The notes below the pieces were generated by a model. The model was not told the origin of the DNA and made no database searches. It was given only the letters and a program-made list of their open reading frames with translations. Shown here piece after piece: positions 32,912-40,120 of a stretch of DNA of 64,000 bases. Source of the DNA: Bacillota bacterium (GTDB taxonomy: Bacteria; Bacillota; Clostridia; Peptostreptococcales; Anaerovoracaceae); contig JBHBZU010000024.1 in assembly GCA_041797745.1 (NCBI GenBank), positions 17,407 through 81,406 of the forward strand, read 5' to 3'. Made by a program: the position numbers and the translations under genes. Each line of letters starts with the position of its first letter. The first letter of the stretch is position 1.

Positions 32912-33130
32912 ATGAAAAGAAGTTATAAACTGGAAAATTTGGATTGTGCCAACTGTGCGGCAAAGATGGAAAACGCAATAAATAAGTTAGAGGGCGTAAA
33001 ATGTACAGTTACTTTTATGACTGAAAAAATTACCCTTGAGGCTGAGGATGACAAATTTGAGCAGGCACTTTCAGACGCGCAGGACATTATCAGCAGGATA
33101 GAACCGGATACAAAGATAGCAAGGCGCTAG
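32912..33130 (+). CDS. Stand-alone heavy-metal-associated (HMA) domain protein
   Basis: 72 aa with metal-binding motif LDCANCAAKMENAI. It has a ferredoxin-like HMA fold of the type usually fused to Cd/Zn ATPases. Confidence 0.8.
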   Translation: MKRSYKLENLDCANCAAKMENAINKLEGVKCTVTFMTEKITLEAEDDKFEQALSDAQDIISRIEPDTKIARR

Positions 33131-33144
33131 TTTGAGGAAAACTT

Positions 33145-35163
33145 ATGACAAGAGGACAGAAAAGAGATTTAATAAAAATTTTTATATCCCTTAGTCTCAT
33201 GGTCTTTGGAATACTGACAGAAAACCTCTTTCCTACGGAAAAGCTACCCCTTGTGACAGTGGCAGGAACGGAGATAAATTTAGGGATAGCAGCTATCTAT
33301 GTGACAGCTTACTTAACAGCAGGCTTCGAAACTTTAGGGAAAGCCCTCAATGGAATCTTGAGGGGGCAGATGCTTGATGAAAATTTTCTCATGACAATCG
33401 CGTCCATAGGCGCTTTGCTTCTTCAAGATTACAAAGAGGGCGTGGCAGTAATGCTCTTTTACAATGTAGGGGAACTTTTTGAGGACTATGCTGTAAACAA
33501 ATCAAGAAAATCTATCAAAGACCTTATGGACATCAGACCGGATTATGCAAATTTATACAATGAGCAGACAGGCGAAGTCATGGAGGTGGATCCTTACGAA
33601 GTTAAAGTGGGAGATCGGATTCAGATTAAACCGGGAGAAAGAGTCCCTTTGGATGCGAAAATATTAAAGGGAAACTCCTCCGTTCAAACAGCGGCACTGA
33701 CAGGCGAGTCCGTTCCAAGAGATTTGGGCGAGGGGGATACAATACTGTCAGGCTTCATCAATATGACAGGCGTGCTTTTGGCGGAAGTACAAAAGGACTT
33801 TGAGGAGTCCACAGCCTCTAAAATTTTAGAGTTGGTGGAACAGGCGGCGGACAGCAAGGCAGGCACCGAACGCTTCATTACTAAATTTGCCAGAATATAT
33901 ACTCCATGTGTGGTTTTTGCGGCAGCAGCTCTTGCAATAATACCGTCGGTGCTTTTCGGGGAACCCTTTGGAACTTGGAGCTACAGGGCAATGGTGTTTC
34001 TGGTAATATCCTGCCCATGCGCATTGGTAATTTCCGTACCCCTCAGCTTTTTCGGCGGCATTGGCGCAGCTTCTAAAGCAGGTATTCTTGTTAAGGGCAG
34101 CAATTTTTTAGAAGTTATGAGTCAGGTGGACACTGTTGTATTTGACAAGACAGGCACTCTTACCACAGGAGAATTTAAAGTGACGGAGGTTATTCCCGCT
34201 AAATCTGGAACCGGTACGGCAATGGAAGATGGAGAGCAGCTTTTTCGAGATGAGATTATCAATCTGGCGGCACATGCAGAATGTTTCTCACCTCATCCCA
34301 TTGCAGCTTCCATTCGCGCTGCCTACGGCAAGGAAATTCCTCAAGAAAAGCTTCGTGAGGTGGAAGATATTGCAGGTTACGGCATTCGTGCCAAAGTTAT
34401 CTCCGACAGCGATACTTTGAGAATGGCGGAAAGACAGGTATTAGTCGGCAATTTGAGATTTATGAGACAGCAGACTGATTTAATTTCCAAAGCAGCGGAG
34501 GAAGCTACCGCGGAAGCAGAAAAATCGGGAGTTACGGGCACACTGGTATATGTTGCGGTTGACGGGAAATATAGGGGACTTATTGTCATAGGTGACGAGT
34601 TGAAACGGGATACCGCCTATGCAATCAACGGACTTTTAGGAATGGGAATAGACAATATAGTCATGCTTACAGGCGACAGGCGAAAGAATGCGGAAAAGCT
34701 TGCAGGTCTTGTGGGAATCAAGGCTGAAAACGTTTACGCAGAGCTTCTCCCCGCAGATAAACTTTCAAAGGTTGAAGAAATTATTGAAAGAGGAAAAATA
34801 AACAAGGCAAACCATGCTTTAGTTTATGTGGGAGACGGCTTAAACGATGCGCCTGTGCTTGCAAGGGCAGATGTGGGCATTGCCATGGGGAGTTTAGGTT
34901 CAGACGCAGCTATAGACGCGGCAGACGCAGTTATTATGACGGATGAGCCATCGAAACTGTTGACTCTTTTTGCTATTTCTAAAAAAACTTTAGGCATTGC
35001 AAAGGAAAATATAGCATTTGCACTAATTATAAAGTTTCTTGTGTTAGCTCTGGGGGCTGTGGGCTTGGCAGGAATGTGGGCGGCAGTTTTTGCTGATGTA
35101 GGAGTGTCTATGTTGGCAATATTAAATTCTATGCGAACTTTGAATCTGAGAGATATGGTCTAA
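33145..35163 (+). CDS. cadA: Heavy-metal translocating P1B-type ATPase (Cd/Zn/Co type), lacking an N-terminal HMA domain
   Basis: Motifs: CPC in TM6 (VISCPCALVIS), DKTGTLT phosphorylation site, TGES-like LTGESVP, GDGLNDAP hinge. The last codons and the stop lie inside repeat unit X1 of locus C. Confidence 0.9.
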   Translation: MTRGQKRDLIKIFISLSLMVFGILTENLFPTEKLPLVTVAGTEINLGIAAIYVTAYLTAGFETLGKALNGILRGQMLDENFLMTIASIGALLLQDYKEGVAVMLFYNVGELFEDYAVNKSRKSIKDLMDIRPDYANLYNEQTGEVMEVDPYEVKVGDRIQIKPGERVPLDAKILKGNSSVQTAALTGESVPRDLGEGDTILSGFINMTGVLLAEVQKDFEESTASKILELVEQAADSKAGTERFITKFARIYTPCVVFAAAALAIIPSVLFGEPFGTWSYRAMVFLVISCPCALVISVPLSFFGGIGAASKAGILVKGSNFLEVMSQVDTVVFDKTGTLTTGEFKVTEVIPAKSGTGTAMEDGEQLFRDEIINLAAHAECFSPHPIAASIRAAYGKEIPQEKLREVEDIAGYGIRAKVISDSDTLRMAERQVLVGNLRFMRQQTDLISKAAEEATAEAEKSGVTGTLVYVAVDGKYRGLIVIGDELKRDTAYAINGLLGMGIDNIVMLTGDRRKNAEKLAGLVGIKAENVYAELLPADKLSKVEEIIERGKINKANHALVYVGDGLNDAPVLARADVGIAMGSLGSDAAIDAADAVIMTDEPSKLLTLFAISKKTLGIAKENIAFALIIKFLVLALGAVGLAGMWAAVFADVGVSMLAILNSMRTLNLRDMV

Positions 35164-35425
35164 TGACCCCATTTTGCATAGTCATTTCACCATATCTTCA
35201 TTTGAAAATTATGATGGGAGATATGGTATAATAACTCCAAGTTGCATAGCTATTTCACCATATCTTCCTCTGTAAAATATACAATAAAAGATATGGTCTA
35301 ATGAATGCAAAAGCAGTCATTAGACCAAAATCATATAGCTGTGCGAATATTTTGCTTCGTAAACTTCGGCAAAATCGCACATGGCTGAATTAGACCATGT
35401 AAACAAGGTCTAATAACCCAAACAA
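35152..35425 (+). repeat. Intergenic repeat family, locus C (X-spacer-X-spacer-Y-Z-W-partial X)
   Basis: X1 35152-35199, X2 35220-35268, Y 35290-35326, Z 35327-35399, W 35390-35413, then a truncated X that runs into the RBS of the next gene. This locus uses the GGTCTAAT variant in place of GATATAAT in all its modules. Confidence 0.9.
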
Positions 35426-35444
35426 TGACAGGAGGGCGAAGAAT

Positions 35445-38222
35445 ATCGGTAACATAACTATAGGCATTCTTGCTCATGTAGATGCAGGAAAAACAACTTT
35501 ATCAGAGGCTATTCTTTATCAGACAGGTACCATCCGAAAGGCAGGGAGAGTTGACCATAAAGACGCCTTTCTCGATACGAATTTTATTGAGCGTGCCAGG
35601 GGAATTACAGTATTCTCCAAGGAGGCTCGTTTTGTATTGGGGAAAAAGCAATTTACTCTAATTGATACCCCGGGTCATGCGGATTTTTCCACCGAGATGG
35701 AGAGAACCCTTTCGGTAATGGACTATGCCATTTTAGTTATAAGCGGTTCAGAGGGGATTCAGAGCCATACTATGACGCTGTGGAAGCTGTTTGAGAGCTA
35801 CAAGCTTCCCGTATTTATTTTTGTGAATAAGATGGATAAGGGAGAAATAGATATTCAAATGCTTAAACATCAGATGAATGTTTCACTGGGTGGAGGTCTC
35901 GTTCAAATGAGAGGGGCGGAACCTGAAGATATGGAAGAACTGGCAATACATTCGGAAAGAATGCTGGAGGAGTTTTTAGAAACAGGTTCTGTTCGGGATG
36001 AGCTGATTCAAGAGGAGATTTTGAACAGACAAATTTTTACGGTTTCCTATGGTTCAGCTCTTAAAATGGAGGGTATAGAAGAATTCCTAAAGGTGATGGA
36101 GCGTTACACCGACGAAACTTTGTGGGAAGAAGAACAAGATAGGGATGAGAAATATTCAGAAAAAAATCATTCGGAAAAAAACACATCAACAGACAAGGTC
36201 TTAGATAAGCAGGGTGTTATAGGAAAAGTATATAAGATTACAAGGGACAAAACAGGAAACCGGCAAACTCATTTAAAAGTGCTTTCCGGTATTCTTAAAA
36301 ATAAAATGCTTCTTAAGGGAAAAACTTCAGGTGGCGAAACTTGGGAAGAAAAGGCAGAACAAATCAGGCTTTACAACAGCACGGGTTTTGAAGCCTTGGG
36401 AGAAGCTAAGGCAGGCATGATAGTAGCAGTAACAGGCTTATCACAGACCTTTGCAGGAGCGTATATAGGTACTGAAGCGGCGGATGTGGATGAAAGTAAG
36501 CCTTTTCTACAGCCTGCACTAACCTACAGAGTAAATTTCGAGGGTGGAGTTGACCTCAAAATCGGTTTCAGTAAGCTTAAGCTTTTAGAAGAGGAACATC
36601 CGTCCTACCATTTTCTTTGGGGTGAAGAACATTGTGAAATTCACGTTCAGGTAATGGGAGACATGGAACTTGAAGTGTTAAAAGCAATCATTAAAGAAAG
36701 GTTCGATTGGGATACCAACTTTGACAAGGGCAGTATTCTTTACAAGGAAACTGTTGCAAAGGCGGTTATCGGCATAGGACACTATGAACCGCTTCGACAC
36801 TATGCTGAAGTTCAGTTGCTTTTGGAGCCGCTCCCTGCAGGAAGCGGTTTAGAATGTGGCTCGTTAATCAGTGAAGACCGTCTTGCAAAGAATTGGCAAC
36901 GTTTGATTCTTACCCACCTTATGGAAAAGTCTCATAGAGGAACTTTAACCAATTCGGAAATCACCGACTTACGTATCAGCATTGTGGCAGGTAAAGCCAG
37001 CAATAAGCATACCGAGGGAGGAGATTTCAGAAAGGCTACTTATACAGCCATAAGACAGGGTTTGCGAAAGCTGCTTGAATCGGGCGACATGGTGCTATTG
37101 GAACCAATTTACAGTTTTTCCATAGAAATTGACAACCAATATCTTGGTAGAGTAATGACAGATATGGAACGCTTGGGGGCGAAGTGCAAAATGCCTGAAC
37201 TTATGGATGACGGCGTTACAGGTGTAATTCGGGGAACGGGACCTGTGGCTACCCTTAGAGACTATCAGAGAGAAATCAATACTTTCGCTCGCGGTAGCGG
37301 AAGATTCGTAGCAACTTTGGACGGTTATGCGCCTTGTCACAACCAAGAGGAAGTGGTGACTGCCATTGGTTATGACCCTGACAGCGATTCTCGCAACAGA
37401 GCAGGTTCGGTGTTTTGCGAACAGGGGGCAGGGGTTTATGTAGACTGGCAGGAAGTTGATGAGCTGGCGCAGGCTGAAAATGATTACATTCTCGGAGAGG
37501 ATGGCGATGTAAGACAGCTTGCGGGTGAAGAAAAAATTGCTTTAGCCTTAAAAACCTCAGGAGGAGAGGTGACTGCCAAGGAACTGGAGGAGATTTTCCA
37601 ACGGACTTACGGAAAGTCCAAGAGGGATGAGCAACTGATGAAAGAAAGAAAATCTCGGAGTTCAAGGCTAAAATCCGGAGAAATAGAAAACTTTCCTATG
37701 CCAAAGTGGCGTAAAGATGATAAGAAAAGTTCCAATGTGAAATCAAAGGAAGAACTCTTGGTGATAGACGGTTACAATGTAATCTTTGCGTGGGAAGAAT
37801 TAAAAGCTTTGGCAAAGGAAAATATCGACTCCGCAAGAGAAGCCCTTATTGAAATTGTCAGAAATTATTCGGGAGCTGAGGCTTTGCCTGCGGTTTTGGT
37901 GTTTGACGGATATAAGTTGGCGGACAATATCGGAAGCAGCCAAAGCTTTGAAAAGGTGACGGTAGTGTATACTAAAGAGGGAGAAACGGCAGACACCTAT
38001 ATTGAAAAGAAAATCTATCAGGAGGGCAGTTCTAAAACGATAACTGTGGTAACCTCCGATAAACTTGTGCAGATGATGGCGTCGGGAGATGGAGCCATAA
38101 GACTTTCTTCACGAGAATTTCTTGAAGAAGTTCAAAATTCCGTAGGAAAGATTAGAAACAGACTTTCAAATCAAAAATTACCCTCGAATAAACCGCTGGA
38201 GAGTAAATTTGAAAAGTCCTGA
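35445..38222 (+). CDS. TetM/EF-G-like translational GTPase fused to a C-terminal Rae1/YacP-type NYN ribonuclease domain (start codon uncertain)
   Basis: The frame is open from 35403. G1 AHVDAGKTT (35472-35498) lies upstream of the tracked TTG at 35637. G3 DTPGH, G4 NKMD, G5 GSALK. Ribosomal-protection/EF-G-like domains II-V (GHYEPLRHYAEV, LLEPIYSFSIEI). A K/R/E-rich linker, then LLVIDGYNVIFAW ... VVYTKEGETADTYIEK ... VVTSDKLVQ, which matches B. subtilis YacP/Rae1 blocks. GGAGG at 35431-35435 lies 9 nt before an in-frame ATC at 35445. No ATG, GTG or TTG exists in frame before 35637. Confidence 0.75.
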   Translation: MGNITIGILAHVDAGKTTLSEAILYQTGTIRKAGRVDHKDAFLDTNFIERARGITVFSKEARFVLGKKQFTLIDTPGHADFSTEMERTLSVMDYAILVISGSEGIQSHTMTLWKLFESYKLPVFIFVNKMDKGEIDIQMLKHQMNVSLGGGLVQMRGAEPEDMEELAIHSERMLEEFLETGSVRDELIQEEILNRQIFTVSYGSALKMEGIEEFLKVMERYTDETLWEEEQDRDEKYSEKNHSEKNTSTDKVLDKQGVIGKVYKITRDKTGNRQTHLKVLSGILKNKMLLKGKTSGGETWEEKAEQIRLYNSTGFEALGEAKAGMIVAVTGLSQTFAGAYIGTEAADVDESKPFLQPALTYRVNFEGGVDLKIGFSKLKLLEEEHPSYHFLWGEEHCEIHVQVMGDMELEVLKAIIKERFDWDTNFDKGSILYKETVAKAVIGIGHYEPLRHYAEVQLLLEPLPAGSGLECGSLISEDRLAKNWQRLILTHLMEKSHRGTLTNSEITDLRISIVAGKASNKHTEGGDFRKATYTAIRQGLRKLLESGDMVLLEPIYSFSIEIDNQYLGRVMTDMERLGAKCKMPELMDDGVTGVIRGTGPVATLRDYQREINTFARGSGRFVATLDGYAPCHNQEEVVTAIGYDPDSDSRNRAGSVFCEQGAGVYVDWQEVDELAQAENDYILGEDGDVRQLAGEEKIALALKTSGGEVTAKELEEIFQRTYGKSKRDEQLMKERKSRSSRLKSGEIENFPMPKWRKDDKKSSNVKSKEELLVIDGYNVIFAWEELKALAKENIDSAREALIEIVRNYSGAEALPAVLVFDGYKLADNIGSSQSFEKVTVVYTKEGETADTYIEKKIYQEGSSKTITVVTSDKLVQMMASGDGAIRLSSREFLEEVQNSVGKIRNRLSNQKLPSNKPLESKFEKS

Positions 38223-38416: not shown

Positions 38417-40120
38417 ATGAAAATTAAATTTTGTGGAGCATGTAGCGGGGTTACAGGCTCATGCCATCTTATTACAACTGATAAATACAGGATTTTGTTG
38501 GACTGTGGACAGTTTCAGGGAAACAAGGCAACAGAGTCTTTGAATTATGAGCCATTTCCTTTTAATCCGAGCGAGATAGATTTTATGATTTTGAGCCATG
38601 CTCACATTGACCACTGTGGGCGTATTCCTCTTTTAGTAAAGCAGGGTTTCAAGGGTAAGATTTATTGTACAGACGCTACGGCAGATCTTCTTGAAGTTAT
38701 GCTTAAGGACAGCGGATACATTCATGAAAAGGAAGCGGAGTGGCAGAACAGAAAAAATGAAAGAGCAGGGCGTCAGAAGATAGAGCCTCTCTACACATAT
38801 CAGGACGCATTGGATTCACTTCATGGCGTTACTCCTGTTTTGTATGACCAGCTTGTTGAAGTAAATGAGCAGATTAAAATTGTTTTTAATGACGCAGGAC
38901 ATATTTTAGGTTCTGCCATTACAGAACTTTGGGTTACAGAAGAGAATACTACTTCCAAAGTGGTATTTTCAGGAGACATAGGCATGACTGAAAGACCTAT
39001 TTTAAGAGACCCTGTAATTATTAAAAAGGCTGACTATGTTATCATGGAAACTACTTATGGCAACAGACTCCATGAAAGTAACGGCGAGAGCTTGCAAAAG
39101 CTTTTAGACATTGTGATTAAAACCAACAGAAGAGGCGGAAATGTGGTTATTCCGTCCTTTGCAGTAGGTCGTACACAGGAACTGCTTTATGAGTTCAGTA
39201 GATTTTATGAAAATTATCCTGAATACAGAAAGGATTTAGATAAAATTACGGTTTACGTTGACTCACCGATGGCTACTACAGCTACTGAAGTATTCAAACG
39301 CAATGCGCAGGTATTTGATGAAGAAACAAAGGCTATTATCACCAGCGGTACCAATCCTTTGGACTTCCAGAATCTGAAATTTACCAGAACTTCCGACGAA
39401 TCAAGAGCTATCAACTTTGACTCTACGCCAAAAGTTATCATTTCCGCCAGCGGTATGTGCGAAGCGGGTCGTATCAGACACCACCTAAAGCACAATCTGT
39501 GGGATTCCCGTAACAGCATAGTCTTTGTAGGCTATCAGGCAGAGGGGACTTTAGGAAAGCAGTTGGTTAACGGTTTGGATACCGTATCTCTTTTCGGTGA
39601 AGAAATAAAGGTTCGTGCTGAAATTTACAGCTTGGAGGGCTTTTCGGGTCATGCAGACAGAGACGGACTCTATGCATGGCTCAACGGTTTTGTCCAAAAA
39701 CCTAAGCATGTATTCTTAATTCACGGTGAAACAGATTCCAAAAATGATTTTTCGGATTATGTTCGTGAAAAAATGGGATATGAGTGTACGGTGGTAAACG
39801 GTATCAGCGAGTATGAACTCCAGCAGGATCAAGTGGTTTCCATGGACGAAGAAATGCGCGAGCAGTTCAGCGAAGAAGCTATTTACGATATGAAGACACG
39901 TATTGCAGATATAAACGAGGGGCTTCAGAGCATTCTTTACAACACAAATCTTGCAGTTGGAGCAAATCCGTCACCTGAAAGACTGGCAGAGATTAACAAT
40001 CTTATTTTAGAGCTCGAAAAGCAATATATCAATTTAGGTTCTGCGGTTACAAAAGAGGACAGACCTAATGTTGAAGCAGACGCGGCTGCTCAAAACGCAA
40101 GCAATCGTAAAGAGGCTTAA
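38417..40120 (+). CDS. Beta-CASP family metallo-beta-lactamase-fold ribonuclease (CPSF73/Ysh1-like) with a C-terminal extension
   Basis: MBL motif HAHIDHCG, beta-CASP region, and a C-terminal H motif (FSGHAD, IHGE). About 100 additional C-terminal residues look coiled. RBS is GGGAGG. Confidence 0.8.
   Translation: MKIKFCGACSGVTGSCHLITTDKYRILLDCGQFQGNKATESLNYEPFPFNPSEIDFMILSHAHIDHCGRIPLLVKQGFKGKIYCTDATADLLEVMLKDSGYIHEKEAEWQNRKNERAGRQKIEPLYTYQDALDSLHGVTPVLYDQLVEVNEQIKIVFNDAGHILGSAITELWVTEENTTSKVVFSGDIGMTERPILRDPVIIKKADYVIMETTYGNRLHESNGESLQKLLDIVIKTNRRGGNVVIPSFAVGRTQELLYEFSRFYENYPEYRKDLDKITVYVDSPMATTATEVFKRNAQVFDEETKAIITSGTNPLDFQNLKFTRTSDESRAINFDSTPKVIISASGMCEAGRIRHHLKHNLWDSRNSIVFVGYQAEGTLGKQLVNGLDTVSLFGEEIKVRAEIYSLEGFSGHADRDGLYAWLNGFVQKPKHVFLIHGETDSKNDFSDYVREKMGYECTVVNGISEYELQQDQVVSMDEEMREQFSEEAIYDMKTRIADINEGLQSILYNTNLAVGANPSPERLAEINNLILELEKQYINLGSAVTKEDRPNVEADAAAQNASNRKEA

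Follow-up and report, generated by a model that had tools for sequence, protein, structure and literature searches.

The window analysed here, a stretch of 64,000 nucleotides from a genome of the Anaerovoracaceae (Clostridia; contig JBHBZU010000024.1), carries on its + strand a gene that joins a translational GTPase (trGTPase) to a YacP/Rae1-type NYN endoribonuclease in a single polypeptide, and this raises the question of what a ribosomal GTPase would do with a nuclease tethered to it. The gene is a member of a known, uncharacterised family, and its architecture is not new. We tentatively postulate, with slightly less than even confidence, that the protein works at stalled or collided ribosomes as a Rae1-like mRNA nuclease tethered to a GTPase.

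An original prediction, made from the letters of the window, had described a complete translational GTPase, a linker and a C-terminal nuclease in one frame. When Pfam was searched with the 925-aa product read from position 35445, GTP_EFTU, EFG_IV, EFG_C and NYN_YacP were found, i.e. the G domain, the EF-G domains and the C-terminal YacP-like NYN domain expected of such a search, and all motifs quoted in that prediction were located at verified coordinates. The G motifs are G1 AHVDAGKTT (35472-35498), G2 RGIT, G3 DTPGH (35664-35678, with the catalytic His78), G4 NKMD and G5 GSALK, and G1-G5 are present in 73/73 full-length relatives. Together, these five motifs including the catalytic His of DxxGH, a domain II and a match to the EF-G fold place the protein in the translational GTPase superfamily. 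The AlphaFold2 (AF2) model, for which the alignment of 60 family sequences served as input, has a mean predicted local distance difference test score (pLDDT) of 77, with five EF-G-like domains and the NYN domain modelled confidently, and a Foldseek search with this model returned EF-G structures as the best matches (E ~3e-48); EFG_III is found in the precomputed annotation of relatives. Between the G domain and domain II lies a lineage-specific acidic insert that is predicted to be disordered.

The nuclease domain passes the gathering cut-off of NYN_YacP (PF05991) over residues 772-924 (E 1.8e-43, 148.8 bits vs. 24.6, profile positions 1-155 of 166), and its motifs IDGYNV (37764-37781), VFDGY, ETAD (37983-37994) and VVTSD were confirmed. 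When set against the YacP/Rae1 crystal structure from B. subtilis (5MQ8/5MQ9), the last 190 residues align with an E-value of 1.8e-21. Based on the 5MQ8 alignment, D775 of DGYN (37767-37769) and D850 of ETAD (37992-37994) correspond to D7 and D81 of Rae1, the residues replaced in the D7N D81N catalytic mutant of the Condon/Braun laboratory (PMC10351889). Both aspartates are invariant in 60 family sequences, with DGYN in 73/73 and ETAD in 72/73 of the full-length relatives. As had been predicted, the catalytic residues of both modules, comprising G1-G5 and the two Rae1 aspartates, are intact.

One genome per species (GTDB representatives) was scanned with the C-terminal half of the protein as query, and relatives were found to be encoded in at least 577 species-representative Clostridia genomes. 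Of these loci, 80 were kept for open reading frame (ORF) analysis and 77 were used for the analysis of neighbours; GTPase and nuclease lie in a single ORF at all 80 kept loci where the contig was long enough, with 73 full-length copies of 844-1020 residues. A protein search gave >120 clusters (90% identity) of 875-1076 residues with 46-58% identity to the window protein; the Pfam set including PF05991 is common to all of them. The fusion is not an assembly artefact: the concern that two separate genes might have been joined by misassembly or a frameshift is excluded by the 73 full-length loci in which a single ORF holds both halves.

The hosts comprise Lachnospiraceae (Dorea, Faecalicatena, Roseburia, Acetatifactor, Fusicatenibacter and Coprococcus), Oscillospiraceae/Ruminococcaceae (Ruminococcus, Gemmiger and Dysosmobacter) and, among further Clostridia, Acutalibacteraceae, Peptostreptococcaceae, Anaerovoracaceae and Eubacterium. 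Two fusion contigs are labelled Bacteroidota (CAVGEP010000050.1, Alistipes communis; CAYXLH010000015.1, Bacteroides sp.); since all other hosts are Clostridia, these labels probably reflect contaminated bins rather than transfer. Among 72,556 plasmid records searched by tblastn, the full fusion was found in only 2, a 518-kb replicon of Monoglobus pectinilyticus and a 252-kb replicon of Agathobacter rectalis, both of which are probably secondary chromosomes or megaplasmids. A. rectalis is a cultured human gut species usable for genetics.

The window protein has the domain order of the Clostridial trGTPase-NYN_YacP fusion family along with its KHTEGGDFR, CHN...SVFC and ELxxIFxxTYG motifs. This fusion had already been noted by Atkinson 2015 (PMC4342817) and Matelska et al. 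2017 (PMC5499597), both of which described the architecture only, in about ten species. The earlier assertion that no member had been characterised stands, as we found no functional study of any fusion member in the full-text literature, and GTPase fusions go unmentioned in the 2026 Rae1 preprint; the implication that the architecture itself was unknown does not survive these two papers. To the published record we add the size of the family, with at least 577 species representatives, as well as the motifs of the subfamily, an extra module, a sister family, the absence of conserved neighbours and the non-canonical start codon of the window lineage.

The GTPase subfamily, its extra module and its linker

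The designation of the GTPase as a TetM/EF-G paralogue proved too coarse, given that the NCBIfam cut-offs of both families are failed. The tet_protect model gives 340.8 bits vs. a cut-off of 775 and a second Tet model 220.7 vs. 1100 (NF012153 / NF033148), while the EF-G model TIGR00484 gives 238.6 vs. 659.4. Relatives, including a nuclease-less sister family, reach 381-420 bits against the Tet cut-off of 775, so that the four members scanned (the window protein, the Ligilactobacillus salivarius homologue, P0301 and P0064) span 340-420 bits; the sister family likewise fails both the Tet and the EF-G cut-offs. By these curated criteria, the GTPase is neither TetM nor EF-G, and it belongs to a distinct subfamily. 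In public records, members with and without the nuclease often bear names such as TetM/TetW/TetO/TetS family, TetM from transposon Tn916, or 'elongation factor G'. The Tet labels are a likely source of false resistance-gene calls and can inflate resistance counts in metagenomes.

The tip of domain IV carries two subfamily-specific loops, GHYEPLRHYAEV (36777-36812) and KHTEGGDFR (37005-37031), with KHTEGGDF kept in 72/73 relatives. In the alignment with T. thermophilus EF-G, GGRGQYGHV of EF-G stands opposite the shorter GHYEPLRHYAEV, and YHEVDSSEMAF opposite NKHTEGGDFRK of the window protein. Because the domain IV loops of EF-G are replaced, a role as translocase seems unlikely.

By tblastn of plasmids, we found a 639-residue protein on megaplasmids of L. 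salivarius (NZ_CP114513.1, 4995-6914); this homologue (e.g. WP_283475094.1) is 40% identical to window residues 3-678 and ends after the CHN...SVFC module. A protein search from it listed 120 clusters, with PF05991 in none of them. The named hosts are all Lactobacillaceae (Companilactobacillus, Levilactobacillus, Paucilactobacillus, Pediococcus, Lactiplantibacillus and Loigolactobacillus), and many of these clusters lie on chromosome-sized contigs. A motif scan of 116/120 clusters, i.e. those 630-670 residues long, showed GHFEPLRHY in 115/116, NWQ in 115/116, H(T/S)xGGDF(R/K) in 116/116, CHN in 115/116 and SVFCxHG in 116/116, and the proteins end 11-25 residues past the module, lacking both the linker motif and the NYN domain. 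Because the Lactobacillaceae homologues share these motifs yet end after the module, the GTPase part of the fusion is assigned to a distinct, uncharacterised Firmicutes trGTPase subfamily that is able to exist alone and whose Clostridial branch carries a nuclease. The Lactobacillaceae 'translation factor GTPase family protein' is of the same subfamily as the fusion GTPase, without the nuclease and likewise uncharacterised; we did not find this relationship stated in Atkinson 2015 or Matelska 2017.

A GTPase without a nuclease is what would be expected if the nuclease had been recruited onto a pre-existing ribosome-binding factor. Since fused domains tend to work together, the nuclease-less GTPases of Lactobacillaceae might, by analogy, work with free Rae1; yacP was absent beside them at the four places examined, where the neighbours were variable. 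The L. salivarius homologue adjoins an ArsR/SmtB regulator, a paralogue of S14 (rpsN) and a 'putative metal homeostasis protein' (plasmid positions 2729-4814).

The linker of about 100 aa in the original prediction holds for its basic part with helices and disordered segments (residues ~692-768), whereas residues 631-691 form a conserved, confidently folded module. In the full model this module has a pLDDT of ~75-87; C631, H632, N633, F657 and C658 are invariant in the 60-sequence family alignment, and the NCBIfam Tet profile ends short of it. Modelling residues 622-770 alone by AF2 gave a poor result (pLDDT 62), for which Foldseek returned nothing below E = 1. The module displays a C-H...C-x-H pattern (window 37323-37418), the last His being Gln in the window protein, which could be a zinc site or a coincidence. 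A possible metal link is that the window gene follows an ArsR-HMA-P-type ATPase cluster and the L. salivarius homologue has the ArsR/SmtB and metal homeostasis genes beside it, neighbours that are not conserved elsewhere.

The linker contains an invariant helix motif, ELxxIFxxTYGxSKRDE (37581-37631), as well as 20 K/R and 13 D/E in 77 aa, with pLDDT <50 in segments 704-710, 721-725 and 738-765. A profile of module and linker, searched against 1.84 billion representatives, matched 912 clusters at 50% identity (612 at E <= 1e-10), and its full-length matches are all 850-1000 residues long with the module at ~585-750. As they carry invariant motifs and define 612-912 clusters, both linker and module are under selection. 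Within the fusion family, candidate split-gene forms ('module + NYN' or 'GTPase + module') were rejected, the short matches beginning at internal domain V methionines and looking like contig fragments.

Proposed action on blocked ribosomes and its alternatives

The original prediction took Rae1 to be an A-site nuclease, a premise that its own proponents have since withdrawn. According to newer reports, Rae1 does not cut in the A site but at the trailing edge of ribosomes that have stalled or collided (PMC12407103, PMC13622287), and the collision-induced rise in tmRNA tagging needs Rae1 (PMC13622287). For ribosome binding, substrate, cut site and the role of GTP in the fusion protein, we infer the following course. 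The GTPase would dock in the factor-binding site of a blocked ribosome, either a stalled one or the rotated trailing one of a collision, where the unusual tip of domain IV, in or near the A site, would read the state of the decoding centre. The NYN domain, on ~75 flexible, basic residues beyond domain V and the module, would reach mRNA at the edge of the ribosome, i.e. on the entry-channel side or in the stretch between two ribosomes, and would cut it there as reported for free Rae1. The cut would yield a non-stop mRNA, to be dealt with by tmRNA rescue and exonuclease decay, and GTP hydrolysis would release the factor.

In favour of this tethered mRNA nuclease, both modules are significant in profile searches and intact, their motifs are conserved, linker and module are under selection, the biology of Rae1 fits, the GTPase module occurs by itself in Lactobacillaceae, and the genomic setting is of the housekeeping type. 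Several points weigh on the other side: 1) what is known of the family comes from sequences and models; 2) the arrangement of domains in the AF2 model is uncertain (predicted template modelling score 0.52) and the linker is of low confidence; 3) the substrate could be rRNA or tRNA; 4) the window lineage lacks a canonical start, and expression may be very low or the copy may be decaying. A more specific form of the proposal, in which recognition of the stalled or collided state by the domain IV tip licenses the tethered Rae1 nuclease, making the protein a GTP-gated mRNA cutter analogous to eukaryotic no-go decay, is in our estimate rather doubtful; if true, bacteria would here offer their first case of a nuclease delivered by a factor-site GTPase.

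The strongest of the alternatives is that stable RNA is the target: the protein would dock on ribosomes or on intermediates of their assembly, where its NYN domain would cut rRNA or tRNA for maturation, quality control, turnover or stress inactivation. A part in the processing of rRNA/tRNA was in fact the first prediction made for NYN_YacP, on account of the operon that it shares with mrnC and yacO (PMC5499597, PMC4342817); a nuclease ~75 residues from domain V would lie close to rRNA-rich parts of the ribosome (stalk base, sarcin-ricin loop, 30S shoulder), and a stand-alone, housekeeping-type gene suits such a task. We nevertheless consider it unlikely, as the one YacP to have been characterised, Rae1, depends on translation for its cleavage of mRNA, and genes for assembly or rRNA processing are not linked to the fusion at the 77 loci. 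Considerably weaker is the version in the original prediction, whereby the NYN domain is delivered into the A site for GTP-gated cutting of mRNA, tRNA or rRNA. It can draw on the same two intact modules and on the earlier docking that had placed Rae1 in the A site; judging from EF-G ribosome complexes, however, domain IV would itself fill the A site, and with the NYN domain placed beyond domain V and the module, the two would not fit together, making such delivery sterically improbable.

We give slightly less credence still to a tetracycline-type ribosomal protection protein whose nuclease adds to resistance, as suggested by Atkinson 2015 (PMC4342817), even though tet_protect is the best NCBIfam match and relatives are so annotated. 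The score is less than half of the cut-off, relatives and the sister family fall short of it as well, the invariant KHTEGGDFR tip is specific to the subfamily, and the genes sit in chromosomal, variable, non-mobile contexts across at least 577 species, the 2 plasmid records with the fusion being very large replicons. Ribosome-targeting nucleases occur in defence systems, and the original prediction had raised an anti-phage role. An abortive-infection or stress toxin that shuts down translation on phage attack seems to us the least probable of all: action of Rae1 on the mRNA of invaders has been speculated upon (PMC13622287), yet the fusion gene has no PADLOC match, no immunity-like or other conserved neighbour (the top one in 9/77 loci) and a vertical-looking spread over Clostridia families in a housekeeping, chromosomal core-genome context. 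Very unlikely as well is that the copy in the window is inactive or artefactual, i.e. a start-less pseudogene or a gene for a truncated product from TTG 35637 without the P-loop. This would account for the lack of ATG, GTG or TTG before G1 and for the 861 aa given by gene callers, but the 64 upstream codons are open and keep their invariant residues, AGGAGG precedes ATC 35445 by 9 nt, and the region is identical in 7 independent contigs.

The fusion is a handle on how nucleases of the Rae1 type find and engage stalled or collided ribosomes. There is no structure of ribosome-bound Rae1, its association being transient (2026 Rae1 preprint); non-hydrolysable GTP or a mutation of His78 could serve to hold the fusion on the ribosome, showing where a Rae1-type nuclease is positioned and what it cuts. 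The family occurs in hundreds of gut Clostridia species, among them Lachnospiraceae, Oscillospiraceae and Ruminococcus, and may rank as a major factor of ribosome rescue or mRNA decay in the human and animal microbiome.

Start codon, leader and gene neighbourhood

The frame is uninterrupted on the + strand from 35403 to the TAA at 38220-38222. As an open frame, the interval 35403-38222 of the original prediction is correct; as a start, 35403 is not, being the first codon after an in-frame TAA (35400-35402). No ATG, GTG or TTG occurs in frame before TTG 35637, which falls after G1 and G2, and because this is the first such codon, public gene calls for the same sequence begin there and yield an 861-aa product without P-loop, G1 or G2. 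In the alignment of relatives, homologue N-termini lie 4-6 residues ahead of GILAHVDAGKTT, and ATC 35445 aligns with position 2 of a relative's MSGNITLG. All invariant residues of G1, G2 and switch I are kept in the 64 codons between 35445 and 35637, and by eye (identity not computed) this segment is conserved at least as well as the rest of the protein in comparison with the nearest relatives, which are ~57-61% identical to the window protein overall. The start region is identical across 7 contigs from different assemblies. We infer that translation most likely begins at the non-canonical ATC 35445 (Table 1); a weak start codon could hold down the level of a potentially harmful nuclease. A frameshift from the out-of-frame ATG 35425 was considered and rejected, with no Shine-Dalgarno sequence, a frame of 10 codons and no slippery site evident.

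Table 1. Features of the fusion gene and its upstream region (window positions)
Feature	Coordinates	Strand	Basis
Structured, repeat-rich intergenic leader (~280 nt)	35147..35420	+	Tandem 68-nt units, hairpins; link to gene uncertain
Shine-Dalgarno AGGAGG	35430..35435	+	9 nt 5' of proposed start; read from sequence
Proposed full coding sequence, 925 aa + stop, non-canonical ATC start	35445..38222	+	Open frame, homologue starts, no canonical start upstream
G domain, residues 4-222	35454..36110	+	Pfam GTP_EFTU, E 6.9e-51
Acidic low-complexity insert, residues 228-255 (28 aa, EEEQDRDEKYSEKNHSEKNTSTDKVLDK)	36126..36209	+	Gap in most relatives; pLDDT <50
Domains II + III, residues ~259-426	36219..36722	+	EF-G_D2 260-336 (weak), AF2 secondary structure, Foldseek
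Domain IV, residues 431-546	36735..37082	+	Pfam EFG_IV 431-542
Domain V, residues 549-630	37089..37334	+	Pfam EFG_C 550-634, E 6.7e-15
Module, residues 631-691, CHN...SVFC motif	37335..37517	+	No Pfam family; shared with nuclease-less sister family
Linker, residues 692-768	37518..37748	+	Helices, then disordered basic stretch; invariant columns
YacP/Rae1-type NYN endoribonuclease, residues 769-925	37749..38219	+	Pfam NYN_YacP, PDB 5MQ8

In its own species, the gene has as 5' neighbour the ArsR-HMA-P-type ATPase cluster (window 32912-35163), and the tandem 68-nt units of the leader repeat the last codons of the P-type ATPase gene (GAGATATGGTCTAATGA). The leader forms several strong hairpins, with arms ATGGTCTAAT / ATTAGACCAT, and its RNA fold has a z of -5.8; no Rfam match to a riboswitch or leader RNA was found anywhere in the window. 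A possible extended -10 promoter in the leader comprises TTGAAA at 35202 and TGGTATAAT at 35224-35232. On the 3' side and on the same strand lies a gene for a 567-aa beta-CASP/RMMBL metallo-beta-lactamase-fold RNase-like protein (38417-40120), followed by uridine kinase, EamA, CYTH, trigger factor and ClpP, i.e. a chromosomal core region near tig-clpP. Two putative RNases side by side are suggestive, but other species do not keep the beta-CASP gene beside the fusion. A conserved operon partner was rejected after the flanking ORFs of the 77 loci had been clustered, with the top neighbour family in 9/77. PADLOC defence models gave no match, and no second YacP gene was found in the window. The fusion gene is a stand-alone, vertically inherited gene of the housekeeping type.

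Comparison with known systems

The TetM-like/NYN_YacP fusions of Atkinson and Matelska have the same domain order, content and class as the window protein, from which they differ in nothing essential. Like the window protein, Tet(M)/Tet(O) are five-domain, EF-G-like trGTPases of similar length, and tet_protect is the closest curated model to it. In contrast to Tet(M)/Tet(O), the window protein has an invariant domain IV tip of its own (as yet not set against the Tet(M) loop residue for residue), the CHN...SVFC module and a nuclease, and its gene belongs to the chromosomal core, unlike mobile resistance genes. EF-G is its best PDB match by sequence (215 bits) as well as by fold, with the same G motifs and the same order of domains II-V.

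With Rae1/YacP of B. subtilis (5MQ8), the window domain shares the NYN_YacP fold, the catalytic aspartates and the C-terminal helix. However, Rae1 is a free protein (a 181-residue chain in 5MQ8) that binds the ribosome transiently and by itself, whereas the window domain is the end of a 925-aa GTPase, so that it would be recruited through the factor-binding site, possibly in a GTP-coupled way. SmrB of E. coli and Cue2 of yeast have the same proposed job, i.e. collision-dependent cutting of mRNA to feed rescue or decay, but their SMR fold is unrelated to NYN, and they are recruited by collision-interface or ubiquitin-binding elements with no GTPase involved.

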